NCBI GenBank assembly: GCA_050084515.1
Contig: CM114271.1
Coordinates: forward strand, 14,756,001-14,820,000
Reading direction: 5' to 3'
Source: Blasia pusilla
Lineage: Eukaryota
Length of the DNA stretch: 64,000 bases
Under the pieces are notes generated by a model. The model was given only the letters and a program-made list of their open reading frames with translations, was not told the origin of the DNA and made no database searches. Below are positions 1 through 44,549 of this stretch, piece by piece (within the stretch, counting starts at the first letter, position 1; each line of letters starts with the position of its first letter). The translations under genes and the position numbers were made by a program.

Positions 1-397
1 CTCACGATATCTCCGCATCAACTGACCGATATGTCGAGATGAGACTCTCTAGGCCGTCTCATCTCGCTCCACATACATGTATCTCCGCACAGGAATACCG
101 GTCTGCAACACTGCAGCCAAACCAGTGCTAATCCCACAAAAGAGATCTAACACACAAATGCCCTTCGGCGGATACTGCCATACAATGGGTTTAGTATCCA
201 AAGGGAATACCCCAACAAGACCAGAAATAGGAGTCCACCATGGGGCCTCATCTTCCTTGCGAGGTATAACAACCTCACACCAAGCCTCCTGCACTAGGCG
301 ATCAGCCTCTTGCCATAGTGCACCGCCTAAACTCCAAAGTGGCACATCCAACAATGAGGATGCCACTACTGCAAAACTAGGGACCTCCTCTACCTCC
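1..397 (-). pseudogene. Gypsy pol segment: linker plus start of a DNMT3-like C5-cytosine methyltransferase domain (continues off the window)
   Basis: ORF 49..501 has C5-MTase motif I (VLDLFCGISTGL) and motif II (YMYVERD). It is colinear with 60374..60877 and joins ORF 12705..12941 in frame once the 398-12711 insertion is removed. Confidence 0.85.
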
Positions 398-505
398 GGG
401 GGTTGGTATTTTGACAGGAGAGAGTAAGAGAGGAGAGGAAGAGAGGAAGAGAGGAGAGTCTCTCTTAAAAAAAAAAGGCCAAATCCGCCTCCTCTCTTCA
501 AAACT
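398..505 (+). repeat. Left terminus with GA-rich subterminal inverted repeat
   Basis: GGGGGTTGGTATTTTGACAGGAGAG followed by GTAAGAGAGGAGAGGAAGAGAGG, which is inverted relative to CCTCTCTTCCTCTCCTCTTACCGC at the right end. Homologues at 51136-51246 (reverse) and 61599-61650. Confidence 0.85.
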
Positions 506-1339
506 TTTTGACATATTTGAAATTTTTGTTTGCTTTAAAATTCAGGAAATCTTTAGAAGAGAGTATTTAGTGGTCCACATTTGGCCCTAAGAAAACCTCC
601 TCTTTCTTGGGGGCGAGAAAAAAGGAGACATCATAAGACCACCCTAAACATTTTTCCATCACTCTCCATGTGAGCCTAAGTTTCTTAACATTCCCTGTCT
701 CGGTCAACAAAAAGCAGTGCCCTTGGTATTTTTGTTGGAGGACCACCCGGATGGGTACCTCTCTTTTTGCAGGTATTTTTTCCTGCATTATGGCCTCCCC
801 TAAATTTCCCCATAACCAACTTTCTGTCGGTTATGAATGGTGTCTGCTCAAGATCAACTTTCTGAAATGTGAACAAATCAGATCCTAAGGCTGAGAAACC
901 GAGAAGCTGCACCCCTCCCAACCCGTAAGAAAGCTCACCATAAGAAAGGAAAAGATTTTTAGAAGTGATTTTCTTCCATCCTGCACCCACGACGATCTAA
1001 CGGGTTGGGAATCCGAAATGGCAATCCGACAGGTAGTAGGAATCCTGCATATCTTAGACAAGAAAAGAAGCCTACAACTGGTTGGACGAATGAAGGGGAA
1101 CGAGCCAAAAGTCAAGAAGCCCGCCACAATGCGTCAAAAGTTGGTCTCACCGGGATCACTCAAGCAGTCAACCTGTCGGAATCCGACAAGTTGCCTGGAA
1201 ATGGTTAAAAAGTTGAAGTGGGAAAAAAACAAAAAGTCGGAATCATACGGGTTGCAGAATTGTAATTCTGAGTATCTAAAAGAACACAATCCACAAGTCC
1301 AAAAACAGATTCCAGCAAACTTTTACAAACACCATTATG

Positions 1340-1700
1340 GGTTGAAAAAATCTCGTCCTTTATTACCTCCGAAGGAACCTCGGAAATGTACATTTCACCT
1401 AGTCTATGATTTCTTCAGCCTCGTCATCTACAAATTTACTCCTAACTCTCCTCGATGACAGTACCAAAGGAATGTTTTGGGATTCAAGTGGCTCCTCTGG
1501 CCGATTGTAGACGGGGATAGAAAATGTTGGCGAATTCGAGAGCCTTGGCCCCCCCCTAGGTACACCATAACGGTCCCATGTAACCTATCTCGAGTCCCAC
1601 CGCCTTCCTAGGCAGTATACCTTGTACGCTCTGCAATGTGACACCCATCCAGTATCAATATCTGCTCCGTCCCCGGTAATACCACTATGGCAACCGCACA
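1340..1700 (+). pseudogene. Small third ORF of the DNA transposon, unknown function
   Basis: LVYDFFSLVIYKFTPNSPR*QYQRNVLGFKWLLWPIVDGDR matches LVYDFFNFIIYKFTPNSPRFVYNKNVLGYKWLL*PIVDGD in the second copy (~48900-49185, minus), with synonymous codon changes. Confidence 0.55.
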
Positions 1701-2788
1701 GGTAGAAGGAATCCAACACGTCTGAGAGAAGAAAAGAAGCCTACGCCTGCCTTTACGAGTTGAGGGGAAGGTGCCAAGGAAGAAGCCCGCTAGATCGCCT
1801 CTTAAGTTGGACCAACAGGAAAGGTCCGATCAGGCAACTGTCGAATCGAATCAGGACGAGTTGCCTGGAGGTGGTAAAAAGGGTGCAGTGGTCAAAAAGC
1901 GAAAAGTTGCAAGGAGGAGAAATCCGACGGGTTGCAGTGGTCATAAAGTGAAAGTTGCAAGCAGGAGAAATCCGACGGGTTGCAAAGTAGAAGTCCGTGG
2001 AGTACATAGACGATCACATTCGAAAAGACAAAAAATGATCAGCAAACATTTACAAGCACCACCATCGATCGAAAAAATCTTCTGCTTTATATCATCTGAA
2101 AAAAGCTCGGAATTGTACATTTGATCTATTCTATGAAATCTTTTGCCTCATTATCAAAAAACTCCCTACTCCAAACGCTGCAGTCAAGCTGGGTAGTTGA
2201 GTTCTTTGAACTCACTCGTCATCGTCTGAGAGCTCTTGCAAAATCACTTTCGGCCTTGCCCTCCCGATTTTGGGAATCGTTGGAAGTGACGATGGAGTGA
2301 CTACCAAGGGTGGCTCTGGAACCGAGCTCGGCCGGTGGAGAGTTGTACGCCCCAACGAGCCTTTCGATTCTCGCCTTTGCCTCCTTGCAAAGGTCAAACA
2401 GTTCCTGCCTTCCCTCGAGGCAGAGAATGTTCGTGCCACTCTGCCAGGCGCCTTTGATACTTGCCCCTGAAAGTCCCACTAAGTCGAACACCAAGTCACC
2501 CGGCCTTGAGCAGAGCTCGATGAGCGCTTGCATCGTGGTGGCGACTTTTCCCTTCCTCCTAGTGGGGTACTATCTTGCATGTAAATTTCGGGGAATTGTA
2601 CAAACTATCTAAGTGTACCCATCGAGCATGGATCCACAGGATCCTGGATCTTGAACACCGGAAATTGTGCTCGGGCGAACGAAGCAATAGACGAGGAGTG
2701 GTCCATCTCAGTAAATCAAAGACGTTGGAAACAATGTCGAGAAACTAAAGAAGTCGCCTTGAAAAATTTTCAATAATCGACTTTGGAT

Positions 2789-3156
2789 CAACTCCGTCGG
2801 AGTCCGGCGGGTTGTTTTGTTCGGACCAACCGCCGGAACCCGGCGGGTTGCGATTCACAGGTTTTCCCGGTTGATTTTGGTTTTGGATGCAACCCGTCGG
2901 AAGGCGACGGGTTGGTGGCCTAGAGCAGCCCATGCTCGCCTAAGAGCAACCCGTCGCTATCGACGGGTTGCATCCAAAACCAAAATCAACTGGGAAAACT
3001 CAGTAATCGCAACCCGTCGGGTTCCGACGGGTTGCAGATACACCGCAGTTTTCCCTGTATGTGGGAAAGATGCAACCCGTCGGAAACCGACGGGTTGCTC
3101 TCAACCGAGCATGGGCTGCTCTAAGCCAGCAACCCATTGCCTTCCGACGGGTTGCT
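2789..3156. repeat. Intronic palindrome array (7 units, ~60-bp period in the right part) with foldback
   Basis: GCAACCCGTCGG-n-CCGACGGGTTGC variants at ~2789, 2827, 2888, 2946, 3009, 3071 and 3129. Confidence 0.9.
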
Positions 3157-5249
3157 CACAGACAAAAAAAACCCAGATTGACTCTCATTATACACATCAT
3201 TAAAATATAATTGAAATTATAGTACAGGAATCGTCGCGGATCGGAGTGGGTACTCGTTTTTTATGATCCACGATTGTGCCGTTTTCCACTTTAGCGACCT
3301 CTTGACGCACTGGAGGTTGAAGAGCTCGTCCTCGCTCCCTCTAGTCAACACCAAGAAGCAGCCCCTGTCACTCAGATAGGCGTCTGCAAAGCAGTACAAA
3401 AGTGCAATCTGGTCATAAGTGAGCGGCACATTCCACTCAGGTACCTCGTCCGACGGATTCTCACCCCAAAGTCGCAACCCCGAGGGCAGATCGGCGATCA
3501 AGAGATCCACCGCAACCTCTTCGACCACTCCATTCACCGTCCACGCAGCGTGCCCATTTCGTTGGAGCTTCCGTCCCAGCGTTGTCAATTTTTCGATGGT
3601 CGGTGTCGACGCTTGAGAATCGAAGCTCTTCACTCATCCAAGAAAGGAGTGAATCAAGGAGGACGCTTGTCCGGGTCGTTGTTTGTCTGTGTCTTCCCAA
3701 GGATGATGGGCTGTATTCTCCTTGGGACAACCCGGGCACCTCTCGCTTCCGCTTCTCCCTAGCTTGGGGACGGCTTGTCGGGGTTTCTATGACCTCAGAT
3801 TCTGGTGGCGTTTTTTTCGCCGAGGACCTAGTCCGACCCTCTCTCCCCGCTCGTCCGGACGATTCCGCCTCTGGCCTTGAATCTTCAGCCTCTCTTTGGG
3901 AAGACTTGGCCTTTGAATTTTTCCCTCCCCTCGCCTTGCCTTTGAGACCTTGTGGATTTGTCTTTGTCGTCAGGCGGACCTTGGAAGCCAACTCGGTGTC
4001 TCGTGGGCCTGCTTCTTCTGCATCTCCTCCGAAGAAGTCTTCTTTGCCGGACGAAATTGGGGATGTCGTCTTGTCTTGAGGCCTTTGCATCATGAAGCAC
4101 TCGTAAGTCCTTATCCGTGATGTCTTGTGGTCGTTGAAGTCGAGCCAAATGGGGCAATTCTCCACCTCCCAATCGGACATGTCTTCGCCCCATCTCCACG
4201 TCGTACATGGAGAATGTCTCGCATCCGGCGGCGAAGCCCACAACTTCAAGGCTACCGGTAATTTTCCCCACGCACTGCGTTCTTACATCGACGAGGTACC
4301 AAGACCATCCGTTGGGCAACTTTTAGTCGAACAGATCGCCGTCTGCTCCTGTAGATCTCGCTTCTTCTTCGCTTGATCCCGTTTGTTCCCCTCTACTTCT
4401 TCGTCAAGCTCTGCCGAGGAGGACGCAAACCTTGAACATGGTCTTGAAACCTGAGTTTTTGGTTGGCTTGTCCCGGATGTCGCCGAGCCAAACCTCAAAA
4501 TCTCCGAACTTTCAAGGTTTGCTTCGCGGAATGGGCTCTAATCTTCGAACTCCGCTTGCAGGCACCGCCCAAAGACGGACTTCTCGATTACCGATTACCC
4601 GCAACGCCCCCAGAACGACCATTCGCATAGCCAATGCGAGATCATCGGATCGGACACACCGGAGGATGGTGTGCCGCCTCTTCCGGGCCTCTCGAGCCCT
4701 CGAGATCGATTTTCATCGGTCGTATCCTCTGAACTCGCTTATCCCGGATAACGAAACCGATGCACGCGATCCAAATGACACTTTCTCCCAATCCGACCAT
4801 GCGGATCTTCATCCCTCTTCATTTGGCGCTTGATAATCGCTTCAGCTCCTTGTAGAACTCCGGACCAAGTTCGGGTTGAGAATCTTGATGTATCGCGCAT
4901 CTTGCTCGCCGTGTATTTCGTTGCAGATCATCGCAGCTTGATGAATTTGGCGCGCTCAGACGCAGACACCTTCTCCCTCCGCTCCTGCTCCAGTGCAGCG
5001 CTTTTCTTCGCGTCCTATATCTTCGACCAACAAAGGATGGTTACGGCTGCATCTTGAGAAATAAACTTGTTTGCCCAAGTTTTCTTCTTAATCTGAGCAC
5101 CCTTTGCAAGCATCTGATTGACGAGGGCATTGCCCAAGAACCCCCTGTACTCTCCCGGGTGCGTCGTAAGCACCTTCCTCACCCGATCGCAGTCCTGGAT
5201 CCAGTGGTGGGTGATATTCCCCTCCGATATAATCCTGGACATCCAAACT

Positions 5250-5968
5250 CAACCCGTCAGGAAATTACATGGGTTCCTCCAACCCGTCGGACTCCGACGG
5301 GTCGTCACAGCTCAAGGTCGGATTCTAGCAACGAGCTAAATGATGCAACCCATCAGAGTCCGACGGATTGCATTCAGATTTGCTAATGCCTGGTAAGAAA
5401 ACCGTCGGAGTCCGATGGGTTGCTCGATAGGCCGCCTTGTGAGGGTGTTTTTTTAAGAATGCAACTCGTCGGACTCCGACGAGTTGCTTGAGTGACTGCA
5501 GGTTTAGAAGGTTTTTTCCCCAAAGCAACCCGTCGAGTCCGACAGTTGCTTGCCTCGGCCGCTTTTTCCCCAAATCAACCCGCCCGAGTCCGACGGGTTG
5601 ATTTCGCCAAAAATAGCGAGGCAAGCAACCCGTCGGACTCCGGACAGTTGCTTTGGGAAAAACCTTCTAAACTCAGATCACTCAAGCAACTCGTCGCCGA
5701 GTCCGACGAAGTTGCATTCTTCAAAAACATCCTCACAAGGCGCTTTGTCGAGCAACCCGTTGACTCGACGGTTTGCTTTGGGCCAAAAACTAGTTAAATC
5801 TATGTTCAATCAAACAAGTCGTCGGAGTCCGACGAGTTGCAATCTTAAAAAAACATCCGAAAAAGCGTGCAGTCCAGCAAGCCGTCGGAGTTCGACGAGT
5901 TGCTTTCGGCAAAAACAAACCTAACCCATTCATCAATCGAGCAACTCATCGGAGTCCGACGAGTTGCG
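5250..5968. repeat. Intronic palindrome array (~13 units) with a ~375-bp foldback
   Basis: Repeated CAACYCGTCGGAnTCCGACGRGTTG. 5399-5574 is the inverted copy of 5601-5774. Confidence 0.9.
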
Positions 5969-7456
5969 AAAGTGTTAAAGATACTCACGTGTTCATGGCA
6001 TGCATTGCCATCTCCACCGTCGCCATGTGATGAGGGTATGGGTGAAGGACCACTGCCTTCACGCAAAAATGTGCCTCCAATGAGTTGGGCCGCTCCTCCG
6101 CAAACTTGGTCCACGCCATGAACCTATGATTTCCATCCCAGATGAAGAAATGCAGATTCCTCATCCAGCTGAATTCCGTGCCCTCAACTTGCCTTCTAAA
6201 GTCCTGGTCTCGCATCCTCCAGAATGTGTCGAGCTTTTCCAAGTCCTCCTCGGTAACCAGAGCTTGGGTTCCATGCTCGTCGTAAGGCTAAACATAGAAG
6301 GGAGGAAAGATGTCGACGTAGGATGCTGTCGCCGCCGATTTTTTTAGCTTCGCGATGTCCTCGACGGACTGAATTTCGTAGGACGTATTCCATTGTCCGC
6401 AATCGGCAGAGTGGAATCCTCGGGGCATTGTGGCCCTCCATGAGTGCCATCTGCTTTACCACCTGTCAGAACTAGGACAAGAGGAATAAGCTACACTGAA
6501 ATCCCAATGAATTGCAATTCACATAATTAAAAAAACCCAGAACCTCTCTTACCCGCTCGAAAATGGGGTCGGTTTCTTGACCAGCTAACTTGTCTGAGAC
6601 AGAGGCTGGCAAATCGACTGGGAACTCGTTGATCCGATAGAGGTCGATGTCCTCCGCCGGGCTTGGAGTCGAGAATGACCGCTCTCCGGCTTCTTCGGCC
6701 ATGTCCACCATCTCCACGCTGGCGGTCCTCATGACCTCGTCATCATCGATTTCAACTTTTGGCGTTTCCACTATGTTGATTGTGTCCCCGGACTTCGTGG
6801 GGGACATTTCCCGCATCTCAACACTTGCGGTTGGACGGGCTGGGCTATCGTCAATGGCTATCGCTTTTTCCCTCCTCGCTTTAGCCAATTCTGCCCTCCT
6901 CACCGACGCGTCCAGACGCTTCTTTTCTCTCTTTTCGTCGGCGATCCTTTTCTTCAAGGCCTGCGACGTCTCGGCCTCTGCGTTCTGTTTATCTAGCGCC
7001 TCTTGAACACGTCTCGCAAGAAGCACTTGGTTGTGCATCTCCGCTTCCCTTTCCCGCTCCTCGATTTCCTGCTGCCTAATTTCATTCACCGAACGAGGCC
7101 CAGGAGAAGCTGATGCAGGAGTCCTAATGGACTTCGGAGTGAAGCTCCCAGACTTGTTGGCTTGTGATTTTTTCCTCGTCATTTTTTCCGGAAATGCCTC
7201 CACCTATGTCCACGACGAATCCCTTGATCAGTCACCTTGTTGATGTCGAGATGGGAGCTTGAATCGCCTTGATGGTTAGCTCGAATCGTCCCGCTATCGC
7301 TCGGTCGAAGCGTCTCGCTCTCGTTCCCTCCTATCGACTCGCGATGTGTCGCCGTGTGAAATGCCCCTTCGTATCTGATCAGCTGCTGCACGGGAGAGTG
7401 AGGAGTGAGGAATGAAGATCGCGAAATGAGAAACCGGAAATGAGCGATTTCTGCCC

Positions 7457-7464
7457 TATTTATA
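7457..7464 (-). promoter_or_regulatory. Candidate TATA box of the ParB-MTase gene
   Basis: TATAAATA on the minus strand, ~275 bp upstream of the ATG at 7182. Confidence 0.5.
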
Positions 7465-7552
7465 CTTTTCTAGCCGTTGGGCTGACCGTTGGGTCCCGTC
7501 GTCCTTTCGACGGTGACGTGCCGGATGTTACGGAAGTCCGGACGTGAAAAAT

Positions 7553-8270
7553 GGCAACCCGTCGGAGTCCGATAGGTTGCCCGGCTCCGCCATCCTGGGT
7601 ACGTCACCACGTGCACGAGCAACCCGTCGGAGACCGACGGGTTGAGCGCCTCCGTCGTCTTCAGAAAAGAACGCGAGGTACCCGCGCAACTCGTCGGAGA
7701 CCGACATGTTGCGCGCCTCCGCCATCCTGGGTACGTCGCCATGTGCACGAGCAACCCGTCGGAGACCAACGGGTTGAGCGCCTCCGTCATCTTTGGAAAA
7801 CAACGCCAGGTAGCCACGCAACCCGTCGAAGACCGACATGTTGCGCGCCTCCGCCGTGTTTGGGACGGGAACGGGACGTATCTTGGGCAATCCGTCGGAG
7901 ACCGTTGGGTTGCACGCTTCCCTCATCAAGGGTTAAGAACGAGGGCTTCCCGTGCAATTCGTCGGAGTCTGGCTGGCTGCACCACAAGGCGAGGCCCTTG
8001 CGCAACCCGTTGGAGGGCGATGGGTTGCACGCCTCGCCGTCTTTGGGCTAAAAGGCGAGGTACCCGCGGAACTCGTCGGGAACAGACGGTTTGCACGCCT
8101 CCGGCATCTTCGGGCAAGAAGGATCGGTATCCGAGCAACTCGTCGGAGAGCGACGGGTTGCTCGCTTTGACAATGTTTAGCAGAAGCGTGCAACCCGTCC
8201 GATGCCGACGGGTTGCAGGCTTCGGTTAGCTTCGGGTAATTTTTGAGTTACCAGGACTCCGACGGGTTCC
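7553..8270. repeat. Intergenic palindrome array between the divergent genes (~12 units, ~66-bp period, A/B higher-order repeat)
   Basis: Units at ~7554, 7619, 7686, 7751, 7818, 7887, 7954, 8002, 8069, 8134 and 8189, with alternating related spacers. Confidence 0.9.
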
Positions 8271-8483
8271 AAGTGTGATGCGCAACCCTTTGCTTCCCAA
8301 ATCCGGTAACATATTGCAACAGAATTGAATGTGTTACAGAATTGGATCCATTGTGTCAGACAATGTCACCCACCGAATTCATCTTGTCAGTAAAAATCTG
8401 TCAAGAGTATCTGTTTCCTATTCACTATAAATTAAATATTCTCATTCTCATTCTCAGTCTCCTCCCATTGGAATCTTCTTGGA

Positions 8484-11400
8484 ATGGATAATTATGTTAA
8501 GCTCACTTGTGGCAGTCATCTGGCGGCCCTTCCTCAATCGGAAATCATTCGACCCCAAGCTCGTTAGTCTTTCATAGCAGTGGATGAATTTTTTTGTCTG
8601 TTCGATTTCTTCTTCAAATTGGAACCATCTTTGTATCCAAAGATGTTAGGGTGGACGGTACGGAAGACATAATAGGTGAGACGGTCCAGCCAGTGACCTC
8701 AGACCGTAAAGTATGGAATCTCCTACCTCTACCAAATGGTCAATACAGAGTTTACGGCCCCCCGATCGTCTGTTTCCCAAGTAGACGGTCTAGAATTTCC
8801 TAGTGCTCCGAGCTCACGTTTGCAACTCCAAGCTCTGCAGATCCGGCCGACTCCAACCGTGACGCTCAGAACAATTTTGTTTTTCTGAAGAGATTCCGGA
8901 TGTTATCAACCTCGTGATCTGCTTCGGGCACCAATCGGGCCTCTGTCCGCCTACGTTCCTCTTGCGAGTATCGGCAATAGTTTGCTTTGTCTCGCCCTTG
9001 AAAATGTTCAAGCACATTCTTGTCGACGATTTAGCCGCCCCACGTCGATGGTAATTGCATTTTTGAGTTGCCTCCACTTGTCGCTCTGCTCAAAAGAAGG
9101 ATGGAGGACGCCTGAAGGGTATGGACAGAAAGTCTGATTGTCATCGATGGTGCAGGCTTCAACGGACAGTGCTTCAATTCCAGATGGTCCTTGGATTGTC
9201 TCCCGCCGCCAATGCGTGGGAGCCTTGGAGTGTAGAAGTCCAGCATGCCCGTATCTAGAGCGCAACGGGCGAGTCAATACGTCGCAATTCCCTCCCAAGA
9301 ATGCAGAAACTCCATACGAGGTCGGTGCCACCATACCGCCGGAGGCCATCGATGTCCTCATTGTCGCATCGCCTTCTACGTTGGAGCGTGTCCCGCATAC
9401 ATATTTTTCATTGTCCACGACTTGGGCTCCACGTCAGAGTATACAAGGCTGGCTGTCCATGTTGGCTCCCACACTCATCCTGTGACCGATGCAATTCAAA
9501 GACACATCAAGGAGGATGTGGCGAAGAAAGTAGCCGAGGTCTCTGAGAAACTCCGGGTTCAAAGCCGGAGTGATCAAGCTCACAACGGCATCACAAATTT
9601 GTGAACAATTGCTTGGAATCCCTGGACAGGGCGAGATCACGGCGGTTGAGGAGAAACAACTCTGGGAAAATCTCGCATTTCTCGCTGATCCTGAATGCGT
9701 CAGATACGAGTTCTAGATGGAAAGACGGCCGAAATGGATGCCATCGCCAAAATCAAGGCCAACTCCAAATTTCCATTCATTCAGAGATGGCAGTTCATGG
9801 GCCAAGGAGGTGAGGGATCCAGGGCCTATGTCTTCAAAATGTCAACCACAGGTCCGTCGAGTGGCCTCGATCTTATAGATCGAATGTGGGAAGGGGAAGA
9901 TCTTTACGGGAGTTGGGTAAGCTTTGATATTTGCTACAAAGTGCTGAACGGATGGTTGACGATGGGTGCTCACATTTATGACCATGTGGAGAAGGGACTC
10001 AAAACTATATTTGTCTGTGAAGTAAAGGCAGAAGACGTTGGCAGTTTGAAGATGTGCTGGTTACTCTTATTGGAGGTGGTGAAGGAAAACAAAAGGCCAC
10101 CTCCGGAAATTTATGGGTTCATGGCGGACAATGCACAACCTGGGTGGATTGCTATCCGGGAAGTGTTATGGGGTGGAGAGGTTCAACCGGAGAGGGAAAG
10201 GTCGGATGCTTTCCATTGGCCACAGTCTGTGACCCGGTTGACCAAATCTTGCATCAAGGAGAATAAGAGGACAGAGCATGTCACTCTACTCCAACGCTGC
10301 AAGGACAGAAAAACCTTGAAGCAGGCCATGGAATGGCAGGAAGAACTTCATGGGTGGTGGAGGAAGCATGCGATTGAGGGGAAGTACAAAGAGTTGTGCT
10401 CTTGGTTGAGTTGGTGGTATGCGTATGAGACAATGGGGAAACTTCATGCGGCAGGTGAGTTCACTATTTTGTCTTGTCAAGCTCACGTTGAGAATTTTTG
10501 TAAAGTTGTAGCTCAGGATGAGAAGCGTGGGAATTATATGGATTTCAAACCCAAGAAACCAAGCAAGCTGTCGGATGCGACGGGTTGCCCGAGTGTGCAA
10601 CCTGACGGAAACCGACGGGTTGCCCAAGGGTGCAACCCGACGGAAACCGACGGGTTGCATCCAGATGTTTGGTGCAACCCGAGTGTGCAACCCGTTGGGA
10701 TCCGACGGGTCACAGAGTCGTTCATGGGATGCCTCGGGCCTGCAACCCGTATGGTTCCGACAGGTCGCTTATTTCTTTGACTCCTGAGTTATTTTCGTTC
10801 CCTTCTAACATTGCCATCGTTGCAGGGATTGAACGTTCATGAAAATGCTCTCTGCCCCAACACAAGTGGAGCACAAAGTGTTCATTCCTCTTGGAGGTCG
10901 TCACAAGCATGCCAACGAATTTCACTTGTGGAGGCATGCCAACAAGACTCGGCAAGAGCAATGCTACAGTCTGCAGCATCCCATATCTTTCTCACAAAAG
11001 GCATAACAAAAGGAAAAGGGCCGTCGATCTAGGAGCTCTATGTCAGGGCGGCTGTGAGATCTTGTGATGAAAAATTGTATGTCGAAGCCTTCAACCGGTG
11101 CGTAGCTGGAACTCCACTTGAGCAAGACGTGTACACATAGGTGGGGATATTTGTGGGCGGGTTTCAAGACGTCCCATACAGATGGTGGTAGAGCAGTCCG
11201 AACGAGACGCGTGGAGACCAGATAAGTATCTTGACTTCAGGTAGGTGAAGAGGCAGCATCGAGGAACCAATCCGGTGATTGATTTGGATGAGGAAATTAC
11301 ACCGCCCAGGTATTCGGGGACCCCGGACCCGTCCCAAATCCGTGATGGAGTTACTTCTCCAAAATCAGTGAATGTTTTATTTCAAAAGCCCTCCGTTGCT

Positions 11401-12328
11401 GGAAGTTCGCAACATCCTGTCACTGGGGTGGTTCAACAATATGGGATTCCGATAATGGAGGTGGATTGCAACCTAAAACGGTGGCTAAAACGGTGGCATA
11501 TATCTCGGAGCAACCCAGGACGTGGACCCACATGCGGGGTAGGATCTGATGGCATTAGGAGAGCATGCGGCACTTTCCTAAATAAGAATCAGACAAGGAT
11601 GGACGACCTCTGCACTGGTTTTGGGGACTCAAAACCTTTGATTGTTTCACGAGGACCAGGGGATCAATTGAAGTACTTCTTCTGCCCAAATGAATCTTGC
11701 GCTTTCTGGAAGTCTTATCCGGCTGCTATTGGAGCTCCCGGGAATACCCCCACGATTTGGCCCATTGCCGCACGCACGAACTACACTCAAGACGAAGTGG
11801 ACAATCTTACAAGTGCCGGTTTCAGACTCGTAGACGGGGGAAGTTTGGAGCATGTTCAGACGAGAGACCTTCGTGATTTCAGTATTCAACCCAAGATTGA
11901 TATCAACATGTACCCGGAGAAGGTGGATGATCTCAATCCATTATTTTTGTTTGAGTCTAGAAATGGGGTGAAGAGAAACAGAATGTGCAGGCCAACGGTG
12001 GAGAGAGCAAAGCGAATTGCAGAAAATGGAGATCATCACCACAAAAGATGTCTTGAGTGGCAATGGAATAGGAAGGATGTATTGGGTCAGGAACAACACT
12101 GTAAATTCAAGTGTCACAGGGGTGTATATGGTGCACATCTGTTGCTTTCCCACATGTTCATGTGATGACTTTGTCCAAAGAGAGACAAGTGGCAAAAGGT
12201 ATTTCCCTTGTAAGCACATGTACTATGTGTTGCTGGTAGTTTTAAGAGAGTCGGAGGTAGGAGTAGAAATCCACCAACCAATTCTGTCCCTCAAAGAAGT
12301 TTGAAGTATTTTAAACAAACCACTTTGA
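8484..12328 (+). pseudogene. MULE-type DDE transposase with N-terminal GCM/WRKY-like zinc domain and C-terminal SWIM finger (frameshifted)
   Basis: GCM-like RRQCVGALECRSPAC...CPHC...CPAY...HTHP (9200-9480). DDE core WVSFD...GFMADNA...DAFHWPQS (9695-10450). Intron 10455-10825. PNTSGAQSVHSSW. SWIM PTCSCDDF...FPCKHMYYVL (12150-12235). TATAAA at 8426. Start codon uncertain. Confidence 0.8.
10562..10770. repeat. Palindrome array inside the transposase intron (~5 units)
   Basis: TGCAACCCGACGGAAACCGACGGGTTGCA at 10631 plus variants at ~10565, 10596, 10686 and 10741. Confidence 0.85.
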
Positions 12329-12711
12329 GGATGCAAAATGAGGTTTTAGATTGTACTTTTATTTTTTTCTCAACCTTCACTTTGAGCTTGAACTCTATTC
12401 AGCCCCGGGAAAATGACAGATTTTTCCCAGACCTTGGATAGAAAAAGTGATTGGTTCCACACTTATGATTCCACTAATTTTTCAGTTTTCTAAATTTTGT
12501 GCAATTCGCAACTCGTCGGACTCAGAGGGGTTGCCAAAATATGGAAGAGGAAAAAAAAACTGTGGGACTGCTTAATATATGAACAAATAAGTGCAAAAAA
12601 TTTCAAACAAAATTTTCCTCTCTTCAACCCAACGGAAACTCTCTTCAATAAAAAGTATCTATTTCGGTTGACCCTAGTTTCCTCTCTCCTCTCTTCCTCT
12701 CCTCTTACCGC

Positions 12712-15202
12712 ACCTCCTCTACCTCCTCATGCACAGGAGAATCCATAGTAGAAACATTACCCTCCAAAAAGTCTCTTGGCCAAGTGACTACTCCACTAAA
12801 ACCAGCCACAGATGCTAACACCGTTGGGGAAAACCCTCCTGATCGAGCCCCATAAATAAATCTCACAGGAACTTGGCTCAGACGTCCATACCCGGATTGC
12901 CAACCAGGTCTATAAGACGTTGTCTCAGTCCAGTAATCCATCTAAAAACCCATCGGGTACAATACTTCTCCTCCAACTAGTACATCCTACGACTCGGCTG
13001 ATGTGACCACTGCAGGTACTCCCAACCGGGAGCTATCAGTCGCATGATCTGGTCTCAACTGTACAGAAAAGTTCTCCCGTGTCATGAATTGAGACCTATC
13101 ATTGGCTCCTCCAAGTGATGTTTGAATCTGGAATGGGCAAGGCTCAAGCTCTGACCTCCGAATATCCAAACCAATACATGCCGCCTTTCCCAACATCAAA
13201 GGTTGGGCACCAGAGTCTAACAAGACTCTATCTGGTCTATACACCTGTCTTGTAGGACTCACCAATCGGAATATCCCACTCTGGTTGTCCAACATACATA
13301 CACCAAGTGTAAGCCTCTCACGATCAATGGCTGGCCGGGCTGGTAATGCATCCATCTTCGCCGCTGCTGCATGCCAAGTAGCACTGGTACTCAATGCTAC
13401 ACCTGACATAAAGGGTCGCTCCACCGCAACACCCTCATCCACCTCAGCACCTGTAGCAGTAACACCCCTACGTTCACACAACGTGGCTACTAGCTGAAAT
13501 ACATGAGCTAAGTCAACTCCTAAAGCCACCAGCTCCGTGGCCGAAAACAATTGGGATCCCAACACTGAAGTTGCCACCCGCAATACTACACTGAATGCTG
13601 CATCCGTGTCTACTACACGCGATGTAGATGCCTTAGTCCCCACTGTCTGCTCAATAGGTTGCGTAGGAACCATGGATGGAGTCCTAAGCACCTCAGACAA
13701 CAAGAATGACTGGGGAAGCCTAGCCTGCCTCCCAACCTCACCCCTCTGTGGGTCCAACTCCACAGTAGCACCACGTGGCTCTGACGCTCGAGTGGCTCCT
13801 CTCGTAACCGCAGCTGATGCCTCAACCTGTGGTAGGAGTAGCCACCGTAGGCTCTCCAACCACTGATCCACCTCTATCACCCCTACTACCTCTACCACCT
13901 CGGCCTCTCGGAGCTACTCCACCATCGCCGCGGCCTGCTCTCAACTCTGGATGAAGATCAAAGCAACGCTCTCGAGGATGACTTGGTCTCCCGCAATGAT
14001 CACACTGAGTTGGGGCCGACTGAGGCCCATCCTCCAAAGTCCGTCTCCCATCCTCTTGGGGACAAAACCTCCTAACATGATCACCTCCACATGTCCAACA
14101 TGATTGTCCTTGCTGCGGGGCAGCAAATGAAGGCAATGGTCTCTACGCAAGTGTCCCTCTAGGACTTGACTAAGGTCGTGTGTACCCCCCATGACTCCCA
14201 CTACTACTACCACCACCACTACTATGAGACTGTGAGGTGGGCTACTAAACACGAGAAGTAGTAGTTGTATCCCTACTGAATGCGGATGTCACTACTCTCA
14301 CCTTCACCATGTTAAGCTCAATCTTCTCAGATAGAGAAAACACATGGGTCAATGTGGGTGAATCATCACTCATAAGAGTAGCATCATGTACGGCGCAACT
14401 CTATGTCCAAGATCCCATACCAAAACTGGGCTGCTTGAGCCTCAGTCATACCCTGGGTAACAGAAATCAAGCGTCCCATACGAATGTATGCCTCACAAAG
14501 ACTCTCACCAGTCTTTCGCTCAAATTCTTGAAGACTCCTCAACTTCTCTGTCTTCACTCCCTGATAGTTCTTCTTCAACCTCTTGAAGAACTCTACAATC
14601 AGGCTGAACGATGGTGGGACACTAGTACCCCCACTGGTACCTCCATGGATACCTCCACTGGTACCCCCACTCCGGCTTGTACTTGTACCACTCAACTTTG
14701 GGTTGGCTGGCATAATAGGAGCACTACTACCAATACCACCATGGGTGATAGACACATAGCCTAGAGACCAATATTGTCTCCACGCCTCAATCTCAGCAAC
14801 ATGGTCCTTCCTAAACTCATGGTAATCATCCATGGGTGGTCCCTCCAAGTGCTGAAACAACCCCTTCCAAGCCAAGAAGGGTGTAAACAACGTGGCGTTT
14901 CGCAACATCTGCATATCACACCACGTATCAAACTCCTGCATGAAGTCCTCCAACTCAATGGTGCCCACTGCACCCGAGTATCGTCGTGGGCCCTTCATGG
15001 CCCCATATATCCCGTCCATATCTCAAATCAATGGAGCTACAACACTCGATAACAACGTAGAAGACTCGGTGTTTGGAACACCCTCGTCCTCCTCTTCATC
15101 AATCGTCGGAAGTGGACAAGGTAGCCGATACCTCAATCCACTCCGTGTAAAATCACCACTGTCTGCACCACGGTCTCCAACCAGACCACCAGACAGCTCC
15201 AT
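12712..15202 (-). mobile_element. 5' half (gag, two zinc knuckles, protease) of the DNMT-carrying Gypsy split by the DNA transposon
   Basis: Gag 15019..14384. CWTCGGDHVRRFC and CDHCGRPSHPRERC. Protease VLLDSGAQ (~13220). Homologous to 60900-63300. Confidence 0.85.
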
Positions 15203-16498: not shown

Positions 16499-19210
16499 TT
16501 GCTTGATGAGACGAGTAGAGGATTATGCAAGCGCGAGATGCAGAGATCAGAACTCAGCTTCAAGGGGAATCCTGAAACACTCAAAAGAGTTGTGAAAGAA
16601 TTTGGAGATGTGTTGACTAAGGAGCTTCCGACTAAGTTGCCACCACATAGGGCGGTTGATCATAAGATTGAGGTGATATCAGGATCTCAACCACCGTCAA
16701 AAGCACCATATAGGTTGAATCAAGAGGAACTTGCTGAGTTGAAGAAACAGTTGGGTGAACTCCTAGAGAGGGGTTACATCCGAACAAGCAAGTCACCTTA
16801 TGGGGCGCCCGTCCTCTTTGTAAAGAAGAAGGATGGGAAGTTGAGACTCTGTGTTGATTATCGGGCGCTGAATAAAGTGACGGTAAGGAATAACTATCCT
16901 CTACCAAGGATGGATGACCTCTTTGATCGATTTTCGGGTGCCAAGTATTTCAGCCGGATTGACCTGAAATCAGGATATTATCAAATTCGGATTGCCGAAG
17001 CGGATGTGGAGAAGACTGCGTGTAGAACGAGATACGGTTCGTTCGAGTTTGTAGTGATGCCTTTCGGTCTTTGTAATGCGCCTCCGACGTTTACCACTTT
17101 GATGAACTCCATCTTTCATAAGGAGACGGATGAGTTTGTGATCATCTATATAGATGACATACTCATCTATTCGAAAACACTAGAGGAGCACGCTCGACAT
17201 TTAAGGACGGTGTTTGAGAAACTTAGGGTGAACAAGCTGTATGCGAATACGGATAAGAGTGAGTTCGGTTTGACAAAGATCAAGTTCTTGGGGCATGTGG
17301 TTAGTGCGGATGGAGTGAGTCCAGACATGGAGAAGGTAAGCGCGATTTCTGAATGGGAACTGCCTTCCACCGTGAAGGGGATGAGAAGGTTCATCAGAGC
17401 AATCCAATTTTACCGGACATATATGAAGAACTTTTCGGGAATAGTGAAACCTCTCACAGATTGGACCGCAAAGTTTGCCAATACTACATGGACCGAGGAA
17501 GTGGATAAAGCGTTCAATCGAGTCAAAGAGATCCTCTTGCAGGAACCAGTTCTGAAATTGCCCGAGTTTGACCAACCGTTCAAAGTGCACACGGATGTTG
17601 GTGATTTCGCGATTGCGGGAATGTTGGTGCAAAAAGGGAGACCTATAGCATACAAAAGCAAGAAGCTTAGCGACACCGAAAGGAGATGGCCTACTCATGA
17701 GAAAGAGTTGTTTGCGGTGGTTCATTGCTTGAGGAAGTGGCGTCACTATCTGGGACTTCACAGGACTCGAGTATTCACCGATAACATATCGCTCAAGTAT
17801 TTTGAGACCCAGGATCGCGTGAGGCCAAAAAAACTTTGGTGGCATGATACCTTGGCGTTGAGGAATGTGGAGCTAATCCACAAGCCGGGGAAAGACAATG
17901 TCATTCCAGATGCGTTAAGTCGCAGGGATGAGCACATGCCATCGACGACACAAGTGTTGAGAGCAATGTTCCCTAATGAAACAGACCTGGAAAGAAGGAT
18001 TCGTGAAGGATACATGAAGGATGCGCAAGCGAGGGAGTACCTTGGGAAGTTAAAGCGGGGCGAGAAGGTGGCCAATCTGAGTTTGAGACATGGCTTGCTA
18101 AATTTTAAGCAGAGCAGGATCTATGTAGGCCAAGGCAAGCTATGGACCAAGGTGTTTGTGGAATGTCATGATGGACCTTTGGCGGGACACAAAGGGGAGA
18201 AATCCACTCTTGCTGTTTTGACCAAAAGGTTCTTCTGGCCCAACATGAAGGAAGATGTTGCTCAATATGTGAAGACGTGCGTGACCTATCAGGCGAACCG
18301 CGTTTCTTATGCGAAGAAACAAGGCTTACTTCATCCTTTGCCAATCCCGGAGGGACCCTTGCAAATCATTAGCATGGATTTTATTACGAGTCTTCCGGAA
18401 TCTGAGGGATACAACGCTATACTTGTGATAGTTGATCGATTTAGCAAGTTGGGGAGGTTTGTGCCGATGAGAGAGTCTGCGACGGCCTACACGACTTCCC
18501 GACTATTCCTGGATGGTTGGTGGCGAGCGCACGGATTGCCTAGGAGCATTGTGTCCGATCGAGATCTCAAGTTTACCAGTGCCTTTTGGAAACATCTATT
18601 CAGGAGGTTCCGGACCAAACTCAGCTTTAGTACGGCCTTCCATCCTCAAACGGATGGGCAAACGGAAAAAGTAAACTTGGTTGTAAACCAATACTTACGG
18701 AATAACGTGAGTGCGGACCAAAGAGATTGGGCCAAGTGGTTAAGTATGGCTGAGTATTGTTACAACTCAACTAAGCATTCTGCAACCGAAGAATCTCCAT
18801 TTCTTCTGGCGTATCAAAGGGAACCAGAAGGGCCTCTTGACTTAGCTCTTTCGAAGGGCGCTACATTGACACACACTTGTCAAGCAACGGCGGAATGTTT
18901 GGAGCTGCCAAACAAGTTCAAGATTCACCCGACTTTCCATGTGTCATTATTGAAGAAGTATCTTCAAGACAATGTGCGTCCGGAGCGAAGGAGGATGTTG
19001 AGACCACAACCGGTCATCAGAAATGAGGAACCAGAGTTCGAGGTTGAGACCATTCTACGTTCTAGACGTAGAGCCACCAAGTACGAGTACTTGGTCAAGT
19101 GGAAAGGCTATCATGTGAAAGAGGCAACTTGGATTGCGGAGGCGGATCTTGAACATGCACAAGAAGCATTACGTGACTTCAGATGGATGCAAGAAAGGCA
19201 CATGCGTTAG
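16499..19210 (+). CDS. Gypsy pol: RT, RNase H, integrase, chromodomain
   Basis: LCVDYRALN, MPFGL, YIDD. Integrase SMDFIT, IVSDRD, HPQTDGQTE. Chromodomain FEVETIL...YLVKWKGY...ATW. Apparent deletion of the GPY/F region near 18890. Confidence 0.95.
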   Translation: MLDETSRGLCKREMQRSELSFKGNPETLKRVVKEFGDVLTKELPTKLPPHRAVDHKIEVISGSQPPSKAPYRLNQEELAELKKQLGELLERGYIRTSKSPYGAPVLFVKKKDGKLRLCVDYRALNKVTVRNNYPLPRMDDLFDRFSGAKYFSRIDLKSGYYQIRIAEADVEKTACRTRYGSFEFVVMPFGLCNAPPTFTTLMNSIFHKETDEFVIIYIDDILIYSKTLEEHARHLRTVFEKLRVNKLYANTDKSEFGLTKIKFLGHVVSADGVSPDMEKVSAISEWELPSTVKGMRRFIRAIQFYRTYMKNFSGIVKPLTDWTAKFANTTWTEEVDKAFNRVKEILLQEPVLKLPEFDQPFKVHTDVGDFAIAGMLVQKGRPIAYKSKKLSDTERRWPTHEKELFAVVHCLRKWRHYLGLHRTRVFTDNISLKYFETQDRVRPKKLWWHDTLALRNVELIHKPGKDNVIPDALSRRDEHMPSTTQVLRAMFPNETDLERRIREGYMKDAQAREYLGKLKRGEKVANLSLRHGLLNFKQSRIYVGQGKLWTKVFVECHDGPLAGHKGEKSTLAVLTKRFFWPNMKEDVAQYVKTCVTYQANRVSYAKKQGLLHPLPIPEGPLQIISMDFITSLPESEGYNAILVIVDRFSKLGRFVPMRESATAYTTSRLFLDGWWRAHGLPRSIVSDRDLKFTSAFWKHLFRRFRTKLSFSTAFHPQTDGQTEKVNLVVNQYLRNNVSADQRDWAKWLSMAEYCYNSTKHSATEESPFLLAYQREPEGPLDLALSKGATLTHTCQATAECLELPNKFKIHPTFHVSLLKKYLQDNVRPERRRMLRPQPVIRNEEPEFEVETILRSRRRATKYEYLVKWKGYHVKEATWIAEADLEHAQEALRDFRWMQERHMR

Positions 19211-25721: not shown

Positions 25722-25735
25722 GTTGCAATTTCAAC

Positions 25736-44545: not shown

Positions 44546-44549
44546 AGAA

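Follow-up and report, generated by a model that had tools for sequence, protein, structure and literature searches.

The window, by which we mean the whole 64-kb stretch of DNA analysed here, contains a mobile element, a second, partial copy of it and a miniature derivative (Table 1). The element carries a multi-exon gene with a methyltransferase-like domain and, on the opposite strand, candidate transposase ORFs. Element termini are common to copy 1, copy 2 and the miniature copy. An empty-site form was also found, with ~382 connected directly to ~12712 in RNA reads from three runs (8 + 3 + 2) and in one DNA contig. Copy 2 is truncated at its 5′ end and adjoins a copia-like element. The element ends have only sub-terminal GA-rich inverted repeats; true terminal inverted repeats are absent. 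The candidate transposase ORF 9695–10780 resembles MULE transposase clusters (look-alike scores 0.93–0.91, 131–152 shared features), a result we treat as a lead. Neither the MULE DDE transposase (PF10551) nor any other Pfam family was detected in either ORF, even at E ≤ 10. Mutator-like elements generate target-site duplications of 8–11 bp, and the 15-bp flanking duplication exceeds this size. We note that the CpG observed/expected ratio is 1.00 in the copy 1 gene, 0.56 in copy 2 and 0.33–0.84 in other repeats; this contrast could reflect age, not protection.

Table 1 Features of the window, in order of position
Feature	Position	Strand	Evidence or remarks
Left 15-bp direct repeat (ACCTCCTCTACCTCC), candidate target-site duplication	383–397	.	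Perfect match to right copy
Whole 12.3-kb mobile element, copy 1	398–12711	.	Carries the ParB-methyltransferase-like gene on the minus strand, candidate transposase ORFs on the plus strand
Conserved tail exon (SNSPTFSIPVYNR...KFVDDEAEEIID)	1399–1539	−	Kept in copy 2; resembles C-terminal extension of P0019, P0021, P0022 and P0023
Methyltransferase-like C-terminal exon	2212–2560	−	EKSPP 2550–2536; motif I FDLVGLSG 2488–2465; CLEGR, with the motif II glutamate, 2422–2408; acidic tail ELSDDDE 2235–2212
Probable small middle exon (MDHSSS...FPVFKIQDPVDPC)	2626–2706	−	Conserved with copy 2 48305–48460; limits inferred
Methyltransferase-like N-terminal exon	3217–3633	−	Strand and motif IV DLPS 3492–3481; VPEWN 3444–3430; DRGCF 3369–3355
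Lys/Arg/Glu-rich linker	3640–4249	−	NCPIWLDF 4159–4136, motif also in P0001 and P0013; frame differs from next exon
Middle helical region	4952–5233	−	tblastn with P0026 residues 220–320; model of relative helical, pLDDT up to 97
ParB/Srx-like domain exons (putative)	5985–6426	−	IPLCRL 6417–6400; WDGNHR 6140–6123; frameshift and stop; collinear with Riccia P0028 residues 27–136
First ORF of the gene, charged low-complexity N-terminal region	6472–7203	−	Similar N-terminus before IPLCRL in Riccia relatives, e.g. P0026
Largest palindrome array (GCAACCCGTCGGA-N-TCCGACGGGTTGC)	7554–8216	.	11 sites, spacing 48–69 bp, mostly 65–67
Candidate transposase, two ORFs (9695–10780, 11245–12165)	9695–12165	+	Protein-language-model look-alike search only
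Right 15-bp direct repeat	12712–12726	.	Pairs with 383–397
Copy 2, 3′ part of element	47875–51246	+	Methyltransferase-like exons, 11 palindromes, same terminus
Miniature derivative, 344 bp	61599–61942	+	Retains the termini of the element, plus one perfect palindrome (61691–61717)

Frameshifts and stop codons make pseudogenes of both gene copies in the window. Copy 1 is frameshifted at ~2535, at ~2335, at 3630–3640 and between 6400 and 6347, and has an in-frame stop at 6290–6288. In copy 2 the C exon is interrupted by two adjacent TAG codons and the middle exon also has stops; everything 5′ of 47875 is missing. As both copies are dead, nothing acts from this locus. The preliminary description had mentioned neither the pseudogene status of the copies nor their place as cargo of a mobile element. 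The middle exon of copy 2 (48305–48460) aligns to residues 343–392 of the relative P0024 (linked HSPs, E 1.2e-5). A DNMT3-like exon at 49–397 was considered as part of the same gene and rejected, because homology to the second DNMT-like copy sets in precisely at the edge of the insertion, and the empty-site reads connect 382 with 12712.

The preliminary description had read the region 2212–3633 as a beta-class methyltransferase-like domain with unusual motifs IV and I. Both motifs are as it gave them. Motif IV is DLPS, with DLPS(G) spanning 3492–3478 within the ORF 3633–3217, and motif I is FDLVGLSG in copy 1 and FEFVGLSG (48559–48582, plus strand) in copy 2. The G-NIL-LE pattern described beside them is also present (GTNILCLEG and GRNILSLEG). 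The string EKSP...ELCSR was reported as unbroken, which holds for copy 2 only (TEKSPALMETLMELCSRSGDLV), since a 1-nt deletion in copy 1 relative to copy 2 puts EKSP out of frame with MQALIELCSR (2533–2504). The fold was tested on the relative P0006, in place of the broken window copy. An AF2 model of P0006 containing both domain halves (pTM 0.64, core pLDDT 70–89) does adopt a Rossmann methyltransferase fold. Foldseek matched this model to CcrM (E 3.9e-11) and VIA matched it to M1.HpyAVI (Z 15.5, 184 of 185 residues aligned), CcrM (Z 15.1), M.MboIIA (15.0), M.PvuII (14.5) and N4CMT (13.9). The VIA matches span model residues 1–277 and follow the beta-class order, in which the motif IV region precedes motif I; MT-A70 structures fit less well (Z 9.5–11.3). 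The beta-class amino-methyltransferase-like domain is thus borne out by the model of the relative and its fold matches.

Sequence comparisons recover mainly the motif I region. The family profile aligned to a PDB sequence of the beta class, M1.HpyAVI (5hek, E 7.5e-4), with Asp of motif I and Glu of motif II in register. With Pfam PF01555 (cut-off 26.7 bits), whose matches cover profile positions ~144–221 only, P0016 (31.7 bits) and P0024 (27.6) score above the cut-off; P0026 (25.9), P0006 (24.5), P0028 (14), P0022 (12.8) and P0021 (12.5) fall below it, and the C exon of the window scores no more than 12 bits (E 0.21). PF01555 was the sole credible Pfam match in six family proteins, three of them 793–878 aa long. 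Alignment of the family to a phage methylase by hhalign gave 95% probability over 54 columns, confined to the motif I region, and this region also matched PHROG methyltransferase families (E down to 4.2e-9). A tblastn search of P0016 against 50,697 phage records returned three weak matches (E 6e-3, 17% of the query). In a MAFFT alignment the family DLPS falls under DIPY of the phage Lrm1 methylase; the residue equivalence of DLPS and DPPY rests on this alignment and on the medium-confidence model. Sequence profiles of the N-terminal domain half align no known methyltransferase. The profile of the N-half alignment (A2) retrieved only chance PUF protein matches among PDB sequences (E 0.12–0.27), a word-indexed search of longer proteins with the N exon gave no match, and Pfam gave no credible family for the N exon, the ParB exon, the linker or the DNMT-like exon. 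Judged from sequence and model together, the resemblance to methyltransferases is above chance.

We collected 77 relative proteins, mostly from Riccia liverworts. Motif IV could be read in 40 of these and in every case is D-[LMIV]-[PS]-x, without the aromatic residue (DLPS 14, DMPT 7, DLPT 5, DVPE 5, DMPS 4, DLSS 2, and DLPK, DIPN and DIPT once each). The second Pro-Pro position is also absent in all 40, and the canonical [DNS]PP[YFWH] occurs nowhere in the 77 proteins. Motif I, readable in 27 of the 77, is mostly FAGGWGA. The Riccia copies thus keep the GxG (GGWG) of the canonical D-P-F-x-G-x-G SAM loop, whereas the VGLSG of the window subfamily has leucine in place of its first glycine. Across the family, the Asp and one or more loop glycines of motif I and the Glu of motif II are retained; an HPxxKP-like motif is unconserved (EKSP versus RRKC). 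In alignment A2 the motif IV aspartate (9/9) and proline (8/9) are among the most conserved residues of the N half, and DLPSG is identical in window and Riccia proteins that share merely ~28–33% identity. Comparison of copy 1 with copy 2 over 109 codons gave dN 0.125 and dS 0.92, a dN/dS of 0.14 that indicates purifying selection. The deviant motifs are family-wide and the gene has been under selection; they are therefore a family trait and not decay, as had been suspected from the two window copies. Canonical DPPY/FxGxG in intact relatives would have suggested the contrary, and no relative has the canonical motif IV. The longest open gene models in Riccia reach 1244 aa; many others are fragmentary. 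UniProt labels several Riccia members ‘Trimethylguanosine synthase’ or ‘DNA methylase N-4/N-6 domain-containing protein’, names that should not count as evidence of activity.

The assignment of the N-terminal domain to ParB, made from sequence motifs and models, is weak. Of the 36 Riccia proteins examined for the motif, 23 contain WDGNHR and a 24th reads LDGNHR. The ParB/Srx fold is marked by a conserved D-G-x-H-R / G-x-x-R loop behind a strand; the model of P0045 has a strand (124–127) followed by a helix (134–139). With the model of a relative, each of the 12 highest-ranking VIA matches is an N-domain of ParB, Noc, KorB or PadC (rmsd 2.5–3.3 over 89–99 residues), at Z 5.2–6.3 and so below the VIA caution line of Z = 8; sulfiredoxin is also listed. 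The best Foldseek E value for this part is only 0.021. Searches of Pfam, PHROGs and NCBIfam with the window exon or P0028 matched no ParB family, ParB_N (PF02195) included. The nearest named look-alike clusters of P0028 are phage proteins that combine ParB_N with N6_N4_Mtase (features 0.80–0.81, also by structure), where scores below 0.9 are leads only. As a lead, then, phage ParB-methyltransferase fusions, to which the preliminary description had pointed, are the nearest look-alikes outside plants. Nine pairs of ParB-part and methyltransferase-part gene models have adjacent locus tags.

A 27-bp CpG-bearing palindrome occurs at 47 sites (≤6 mismatches), all of them inside element copies: 35 in 1168–12534, 11 in 48137–50347 and one in the miniature copy. 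None was found elsewhere in the 64 kb, nor in any of five shuffles. The palindromes occupy introns and intergenic regions of the element. The largest array separates the divergently oriented ParB-methyltransferase-like gene from the transposase side, and other clusters lie at 1168–1983, 2789–3155, 5279–5967, 10597–10768 and 12508. No exact match to the palindrome was present in the metagenome contigs scanned; at the protein level, alignment A5 matched 591 pattern stretches in this collection, none of which was confirmed.

The intact protein, as represented in Riccia, would have, in order, a ParB/Srx-like domain, a helical middle and a charged linker, with a beta-class amino-methyltransferase fold towards the C-terminus and an acidic tail after it. 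Phage and prophage fusions of ParB_N (PF02195) with N6_N4_Mtase (PF01555) have the same domain order, and the family is most likely descended from them. Unlike the phage fusions, the family is eukaryotic and intron-bearing, is about twice as long with its helical middle and charged linker, lacks PP and the aromatic residue in motif IV, and has a ParB part and an N-terminal methyltransferase half that Pfam does not recognise. The family shares its fold and IV-before-I order with M1.HpyAVI (5hek/5hfj), CcrM (6pbd), M.MboIIA, M.RsrI, M.PvuII and rotifer N4CMT (Z 13.9–15.5). Its identity to these enzymes is 10–16%, and it has DLPS, DMPT and similar sequences where they have DPPY or SPPY, with VGLSG (window) or GGWG (Riccia) as motif I. 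A relationship to Marchantia DN4MT1 or rotifer N4CMT had been envisaged; the kinship proved no closer than that with N6-adenine enzymes. MpDN4MT1a/b are, like the family, liverwort proteins of bacterial amino-methyltransferase ancestry. In the available parts of the reports they are sperm-expressed host genes with a canonical TSPPY (10.1101/2021.02.12.428880) and are without additional N- or C-terminal domains (PMC8885841); compared with that description, the family differs in being transposon cargo, in its ParB-like fusion and in the lack of TSPPY.

Cargo of a comparable kind is described, in the accessible portion of one report, for the giant Plavaka transposons of red algae, where PAG2 combines PF01555 with SET and PAG3 combines a ParB-like domain with a 2OG oxygenase (10.1101/2025.02.11.637652). 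There too a DNA transposon carries PF01555-type and ParB-like domains, with inverted-repeat arrays beside the ParB-bearing gene; by that description the two domains are in two proteins with other partners, and the superfamily and host lineage differ. No SET or 2OG oxygenase domain was found by Pfam in the six family proteins. METTL14 and the DIRS1 methyltransferase domain offer a parallel for selection on a methyltransferase fold with disrupted motifs; the text available to us reads these as nucleic-acid-binding or scaffold domains with a disrupted active site (PMC4738411). They differ from the family in belonging to MT-A70 and PCIF1-derived clades, the former being the poorer structural match noted above. 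A DIRS1-type retrotransposon methyltransferase domain was likewise dropped as an identity for the gene, as it belongs to another clade according to the same text and the gene is not associated with a reverse transcriptase.

That the gene encodes a protein of this identity and fold and is multi-copy cargo of a mobile element is, taken jointly, very likely. In amino-methyltransferases the motif IV aromatic residue stacks on the flipped base. With this residue lacking but those of motifs I and II kept, the domain is read as a pseudo-enzyme, which would retain the fold and possibly a SAM pocket and would have lost methyl transfer to the flipped base. The preliminary description had left a choice between altered chemistry and a catalytically dead protein; the absence of the aromatic residue in all 40 readable relatives favours the latter, and the domain is probably non-catalytic. 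Since the catalytic motif is absent in every relative found, the protein probably binds DNA and does not methylate it. Catalysis could nevertheless persist, with another residue in the role of the aromatic, given the D-x-P loop, the motif I Asp, the motif II Glu and the GxG of Riccia. An active enzyme with a variant motif IV might methylate its own element (6mA or 4mC, for example in the CCGTCGG/CCGACGG arms of the palindrome), marking self or disturbing 5mC maintenance. The conserved motif IV aspartate and proline in A2, the strong purifying selection and the fact that the closest phage methylase found is already DIPY, not DPPY, fit such an enzyme; the aromatic missing at position 4 throughout, the leucine in the VGLSG of the window subfamily and the unconserved HPxxKP-like motif do not, and we consider it unlikely. 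It is very improbable that the family consists of functionless relics of a once canonical, horizontally acquired methyltransferase. Both window copies are indeed pseudogenes and many Riccia models are fragments, but plain decay is at odds with the identity of DLPSG across so divergent proteins, with the dN/dS, with the total lack of a canonical motif and with the length of the open Riccia models.

For region 2212–3633 (minus strand) we tentatively favour the methyltransferase-like domain of a decayed multi-copy element gene whose product may well have been a non-catalytic accessory protein on the element's own palindromes. The protein would recognise the 27-bp sites and, by occupying or spreading from them, would modulate the chromatin, methylation state or transposition of the element; VANC of VANDAL elements exemplifies such an accessory or anti-silencing role. 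That it acts on the palindromes at all is a step we infer and hold with considerable doubt, and the sites could instead belong to the transposase. In that case the palindromes would serve the transposase or the ParB-like domain in complex assembly or tethering, the methyltransferase-like domain being merely structural or for dimerisation, and the protein would be a transposition factor with no silencing role. The miniature derivative, which keeps both termini and one perfect palindrome as a cis-acting site would be kept, agrees with this, as does the palindrome at 12508–12534, ~180 bp from a terminus. Most palindromes are, however, deep inside the element, in introns and the divergent promoter region and not at the ends, and their layout resembles both VANC targets (PMC5735166) and the inverted-repeat arrays beside PAG3 of the red-algal Plavaka (10.1101/2025.02.11.637652), as far as the available parts of these reports describe them; a pure transposition factor thus appears quite unlikely.

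Returning to the accessory protein, VANC of the Mutator-like Arabidopsis VANDAL elements is a counterpart in mode of working only. The available part of the report describes a transposon-encoded accessory protein that strips DNA methylation from its own family and has short DNA targets arranged as tandem repeats in the element (PMC5735166). No relation in sequence or fold is claimed, and the VANC mechanism is experimental whereas that of the family is deduced. The suggestion in the preliminary description that the domain could block host CG methylation finds only circumstantial support, in the element-confined arrays of CpG-bearing palindromes. A phage-style module of ParB plus parS-like sites might have been kept whole by this plant element, the protein loading on the ~35 palindromes per element and coating or clamping its own DNA, as a sequence-specific shield against host CG methylation and silencing or as a mark of self-recognition; we judge this improbable.

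A literature search, beyond whose reach supplementary tables lay, found no description of the family. To our knowledge, there are very few cases of a transposon encoding a factor against host silencing, and VANC is the sole well-studied one. The family would add a second, unrelated anti-silencing design, in which a phage-type ParB-methyltransferase fusion has been domesticated by a eukaryotic mobile element. The design would pair family-wide loss of the catalytic motif and a selected fold with dozens of cognate-looking palindromes. The protein and its 27-bp site are also a candidate programmable DNA-binding pair. The family would be a clean natural example of the passage from enzyme to pseudo-enzyme, and it would extend transposon cargo of the ParB and N6/N4-methyltransferase type, so far reported in red algae, to land-plant relatives. 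If the shield reading is true, this plant element would represent a new, non-VANC class of transposon anti-silencing factor built from a dead DNA methyltransferase.

The methyltransferase-like domain was modelled from a 33-sequence alignment in P0006, a Riccia relative of 314 residues containing both halves of the domain (pTM 0.64, mean pLDDT 64, core 70-89). Only beta-class amino-methyltransferases appear among the best Foldseek matches of the model: CcrM (E 3.9e-11), M1.HpyAVI, M.BceJIV, M.RsrI, M.MboIIA, the rotifer enzyme N4CMT and M.PvuII. VIA-align superimposes M1.HpyAVI with Z 15.5 (184/185 residues, rmsd 3.5), CcrM with 15.1, M.MboIIA with 15.0, M.PvuII with 14.5 and N4CMT with 13.9, the beta-class matches spanning model residues 1-277; MT-A70 enzymes reach only 9.5-11.3. 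The preliminary description had proposed a beta-class domain, and the relative is indeed predicted to be a Rossmann methyltransferase fold; the contrary possibility, that the domain does not model as one, fails because these matches are beta-class enzymes.

By sequence only the motif I-III region is recognisable. Pfam PF01555 scores up to 31.7 bits in the relative P0016 and 12 bits in the window exon, phage methyltransferase PHROGs match the family down to E 4.2e-9, the family profile finds 5hek in the PDB at E 7.5e-4, and hhalign against the methylase of Lactobacillus phage Lrm1 gives 95% probability. These alignments show conservation of Asp in motif I and of Glu in motif II, the latter within CLEG in the window and within VAET in Riccia. 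No sequence profile aligns the N-terminal half of the domain to methyltransferases. Our assignment of DLPS as the probable motif IV equivalent rests on the P0006 model and a MAFFT alignment, not on profiles. In the model a strand ends in Asp (residues 65-69) and is followed by a loop; in the alignment DLPS lies under DIPY of the Lrm1 methylase, and both the next Trp and motif I are in register too. This phage gene (L001, 931-1686) is annotated as a DNA methylase and is the best phage BLAST match. As its motif IV is DIPY, the nearest phage enzyme found is already aliphatic at the first proline, a replacement which may already be the norm for the phage subfamily of origin. Judged from the alignment, what sets the present family apart is that motif IV has lost its aromatic residue.

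The N-terminal exon of the domain (138 residues) was used as a HMMER query in a full scan of 1.84 billion representative proteins. Seven matches were obtained at E<=1e-3 (best 1.2e-13 and 6.4e-11), four from Riccia sorocarpa or R. fluitans and three from ENA, JGI and Logan records. Follow-up searches seeded with Riccia proteins gave 30 and 41 R. sorocarpa proteins, spread over at least nine contigs; recognisable relatives of the gene are confined to liverworts. The 77 family proteins include 40 with a readable motif IV, which is DLPS (14), DMPT (7), DLPT (5), DVPE (5), DMPS (4), DLSS (2), DLPK, DIPN and DIPT (one each). An aromatic residue occupies the fourth place in none of these 40, and canonical [DNS]PP[YFWH] is absent from all 77. 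Motif I, readable in 27 of the 77, is mostly D-F-A-G-G-W-G-A.

The window holds two copies of the gene, one on the minus strand of a 12.3-kb block (copy 1, 398-12711) and one in the 3′ part of a second copy of this element (copy 2, 47875-51246). The motifs reported earlier were located, DLPS and FDLVGLSG in the translation of copy 1 and FEFVGLSG in that of copy 2 (see table). The string EKSP-LM-L-ELCSR, also reported, is unbroken in copy 2 only and is broken in copy 1. Both copies are pseudogenes. Compared with copy 2, one nucleotide is missing from copy 1 directly before MQALIE; copy 1 also carries frameshifts near 2335, near 3630-3640 and between 6400 and 6347, and an in-frame stop at 6290-6288. 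Copy 2 has two TAG stops side by side and further stops in the middle exon, and nothing of it remains 5′ of 47875. We note that the two adjacent nonsense codons (TGG to TAG, CAG to TAG) are both C-to-T or G-to-A changes, and that a copia-like element at ~43.4-47.5 kb adjoins its cut 5′ side. Over 109 alignable codons of the domain the copies differ by dN 0.125 and dS 0.92, a dN/dS of 0.14; purifying selection therefore acted on the diverging lineages before either copy died. This ratio, the lack of a canonical motif in all 77 family proteins and the retention of DLPSG, which the window shares letter for letter with Riccia proteins of only about 28-33% overall identity, show that the motif deviation is not decay, in line with the view of the preliminary description that it is not just recent decay.

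Positions of the gene parts, motifs and candidate transposase ORFs
Feature	Positions	Strand	Remarks
ParB-like region	6426-6102	-	copy 1
Middle helical part	5233-4952	-	copy 1
Linker	4249-3640	-	copy 1
Methyltransferase-like domain	3633-3217, ~2706-2626, ~2560-2212	-	copy 1
N-terminal exon of domain	3633-3217	-	ORF reads ...VAVDLLIADLPSGLRLWGENPSDEVPEWNV...LSDRGCFLVLTRGS...
Motif IV, DLPS	3492-3481	-	copy 1
Next coding block	about 2560-2212	-	copy 1, reads MQALIELCSRPGDLVFDLVGLSGASIKGAWQSGTNILCLEGRQELFDL...
Motif I, FDLVGLSG	2488-2465	-	copy 1
Tail exon	1539-1399	-	copy 1
Domain part of copy 2	47875-48821	+	reads TEKSPALMETLMELCSRSGDLVFEFVGLSGANIRGA, two adjacent stops, SGRNILSLEGRKELFD
Candidate transposase ORFs	9695-10780, 11245-12165	+	opposite to the ParB-methyltransferase-like gene

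The full architecture is visible in Riccia members such as P0028 (873 residues), and the window gene is collinear with it. An N-terminal region (IPLCRL...WDGNHR) is followed by a helical central part, a linker rich in Lys and Glu that contains the conserved motif E-x-x-N-C-P-x-W, the methyltransferase-like domain and an acidic tail, to which some members add a short extension (...F[VI]DDEA...). WDGNHR is present in 23 of 36 scanned Riccia proteins and LDGNHR in one more; in nine cases gene models of the ParB part and the methyltransferase part have adjacent locus tags. No ParB domain is called by Pfam, PHROGs or NCBIfam. The model of P0045, a 590-residue relative, has a mean pLDDT of 54.5; residues ~20-130 reach 67-89, except for 41-70, where the value falls to 35-44. 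Foldseek returned nothing for it at E<=1e-3; ParB or Noc proteins account for eight of the first ten rows. The best 12 VIA rows are all N-terminal domains of ParB, Noc, KorB or PadC (Z 5.2-6.3, rmsd 2.5-3.3, 89-99 residues), followed by sulfiredoxin and further members of the ParB/Srx fold. In the ESM Atlas the look-alikes of P0028, a lead only, begin with two plant clusters and continue with phage clusters that combine ParB_N with N6_N4_Mtase (0.80-0.81). Fold rows, look-alikes and motif together make a ParB/Srx-like N-terminal domain likely, and the comparison suggests an ancestor of the phage ParB-methyltransferase fusion type.

The 12.3-kb block is flanked by a perfect 15-bp direct repeat, ACCTCCTCTACCTCC. 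Its copies at 383-397 and 12712-12726 form a candidate target-site duplication which, to our knowledge, exceeds that of any common DNA-transposon superfamily. An empty site is represented by RNA-seq reads joining ~382 to ~12712 (8, 3 and 2 in three runs under the same species label) and by one DNA contig. The protein similarity of the DNMT3-like exon at 49-501 to its paralogue (60.4-60.9 kb) begins exactly at the element boundary. Copy 2 ends at 51246 in the same terminal sequence, ...ACCA[AT]CCCCC, beyond which the flanks differ. A 344-bp miniature copy (61599-61942) has both termini, GGGG[GT][TC]TGGTAT ... CCTCTTACCGC, and contains a single perfect palindrome; aligned by eye, the flanks of this copy agree at 10/15 positions. 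Because of the 15-bp repeat, the empty site and the shared termini, we conclude that the block is a mobile element. Its ends are defined and asymmetric, GA-rich inverted repeats lie sub-terminally, and the 15-bp repeat is its candidate target duplication. It has no true terminal inverted repeats, the sub-terminal pair (420-458 against 12684-12705) being the only one. The nearest language-model look-alikes of the first candidate transposase ORF are MULE transposases (0.93-0.91), and Pfam finds nothing in either ORF; we therefore call the element MULE-like only tentatively.

Few RNA reads fall on the block (113-143 per run among 10-12 million records read), and most are 95-99% identical and thus stem from paralogous copies. 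Provided that the libraries are stranded in the usual way, read direction is consistent with minus-strand transcription over 1-8 kb and, over 9-12.5 kb, with plus-strand transcription. At 1452, 1552 and 1584 many reads in all three runs begin or end with unmatched continuations, which suggests that transcribed paralogues have tail-exon borders there. The copy 1 gene (1380-7203) has a CpG observed/expected ratio of 1.00, against 0.56 over copy 2 (0.45 without its palindromes) and 0.33-0.84 over other window repeats. The contrast between the copies could reflect either age or protection.

A 27-bp palindrome, GCAACCCGTCGGA-N-TCCGACGGGTTGC, fills the element; its arms are 13 bp long and it contains four CpGs. 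With <=6 mismatches allowed over 26 positions there are 47 sites (one perfect, 8 at <=2 mismatches, 33 at <=4), of which 35 lie in 1168-12534, 11 in 48137-50347 and one in the miniature copy; none occurs in the remaining ~45 kb of the window or in any of five shuffles. Sites are found in gene introns (2789-3155, 5279-5967 and the matching intron of copy 2), downstream of the gene and in the candidate transposase intron. An 11-site array, spaced by 48-69 bp (mostly 65-67), lies between the two divergent genes of the element.

The 64-kb window is eukaryotic and repeat-rich: its ORFs are fragmented, polyproteins of gypsy-like and copia-like type are present, and long genes of the bacterial kind are absent. 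As the recognisable relatives of the gene are all from liverworts, the genome is taken to be that of a plant, probably a bryophyte. A gypsy-like LTR retroelement is present twice on the minus strand (1-397 plus 12727-~15400; 57500-61400), and in both polyproteins a DNMT3-like C5-methyltransferase domain, on which Pfam makes no call, lies between the protease and the reverse transcriptase. The first (motif I LDLFCGISTG, 150-121) is interrupted by the 12.3-kb element. The second (LDLFGGINNG near 60.5 kb, ENV near 60.1 kb) appears decayed, with stops present and the PC motif not seen; the miniature copy is inserted in it upstream of the protease region, at a site different from that of copy 1. 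This retroelement resembles KnitGypsy-Dnmt3 of Klebsormidium (PMC5890265). A gypsy-type Pol ORF of 903 residues at 16499-19210 (+) is apparently intact, and copia-like fragments lie on both strands at 22326-26760 and 43400-47500.

Fold, family-wide motif state, selection, domain order, carriage as mobile-element cargo and element-restricted palindromes are matters of observation, and a function can be proposed from them. In amino-methyltransferases an aromatic residue of motif IV stacks on the flipped base; lacking it, the domain probably does not catalyse base methylation. SAM binding may persist through the conserved Asp, Glu and Gly residues. Either its ParB-like or its methyltransferase-like part would bind the protein to the palindromes, and by analogy such binding may serve the element, most plausibly by countering silencing. 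This last step draws support from its nearest functional analogues, VANC and Plavaka PAG3/PAG2. The targets of VANC are arranged as tandem repeats within VANDAL elements, and its action removes DNA methylation (PMC5735166); red-algal Plavaka cargo comprises ParB-bearing PAG3 and PF01555-bearing PAG2 beside inverted-repeat arrays (10.1101/2025.02.11.637652). Degenerate methyltransferase domains retained as binding modules are described for METTL14 and the DIRS1 domain (PMC4738411).

Since the defining PF01555 catalytic motif is absent, we file the domain only as a derivative of the PF01555 enzyme fold, not as a DNA methyltransferase. It differs from N4CMT and from MpDN4MT1, which has TSPPY (10.1101/2021.02.12.428880) and no extra domains (PMC8885841), whereas the present family has a ParB-like fusion and no TSPPY. 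Our literature search, at the level of main texts, found no account of mobile elements in bryophytes that carry a ParB-methyltransferase-like gene, and the paper on the Riccia sorocarpa genome uses none of the words methylase, methyltransferase, Mutator and MULE. Known kinds to which the family is related are ParB-methyltransferase fusions of phage type and genes for modifying chromatin or DNA that transposons carry as cargo. The concept has precedent, but the family is unannotated and offers a clear, testable candidate pairing of protein and site and a clean pseudo-enzyme signature.
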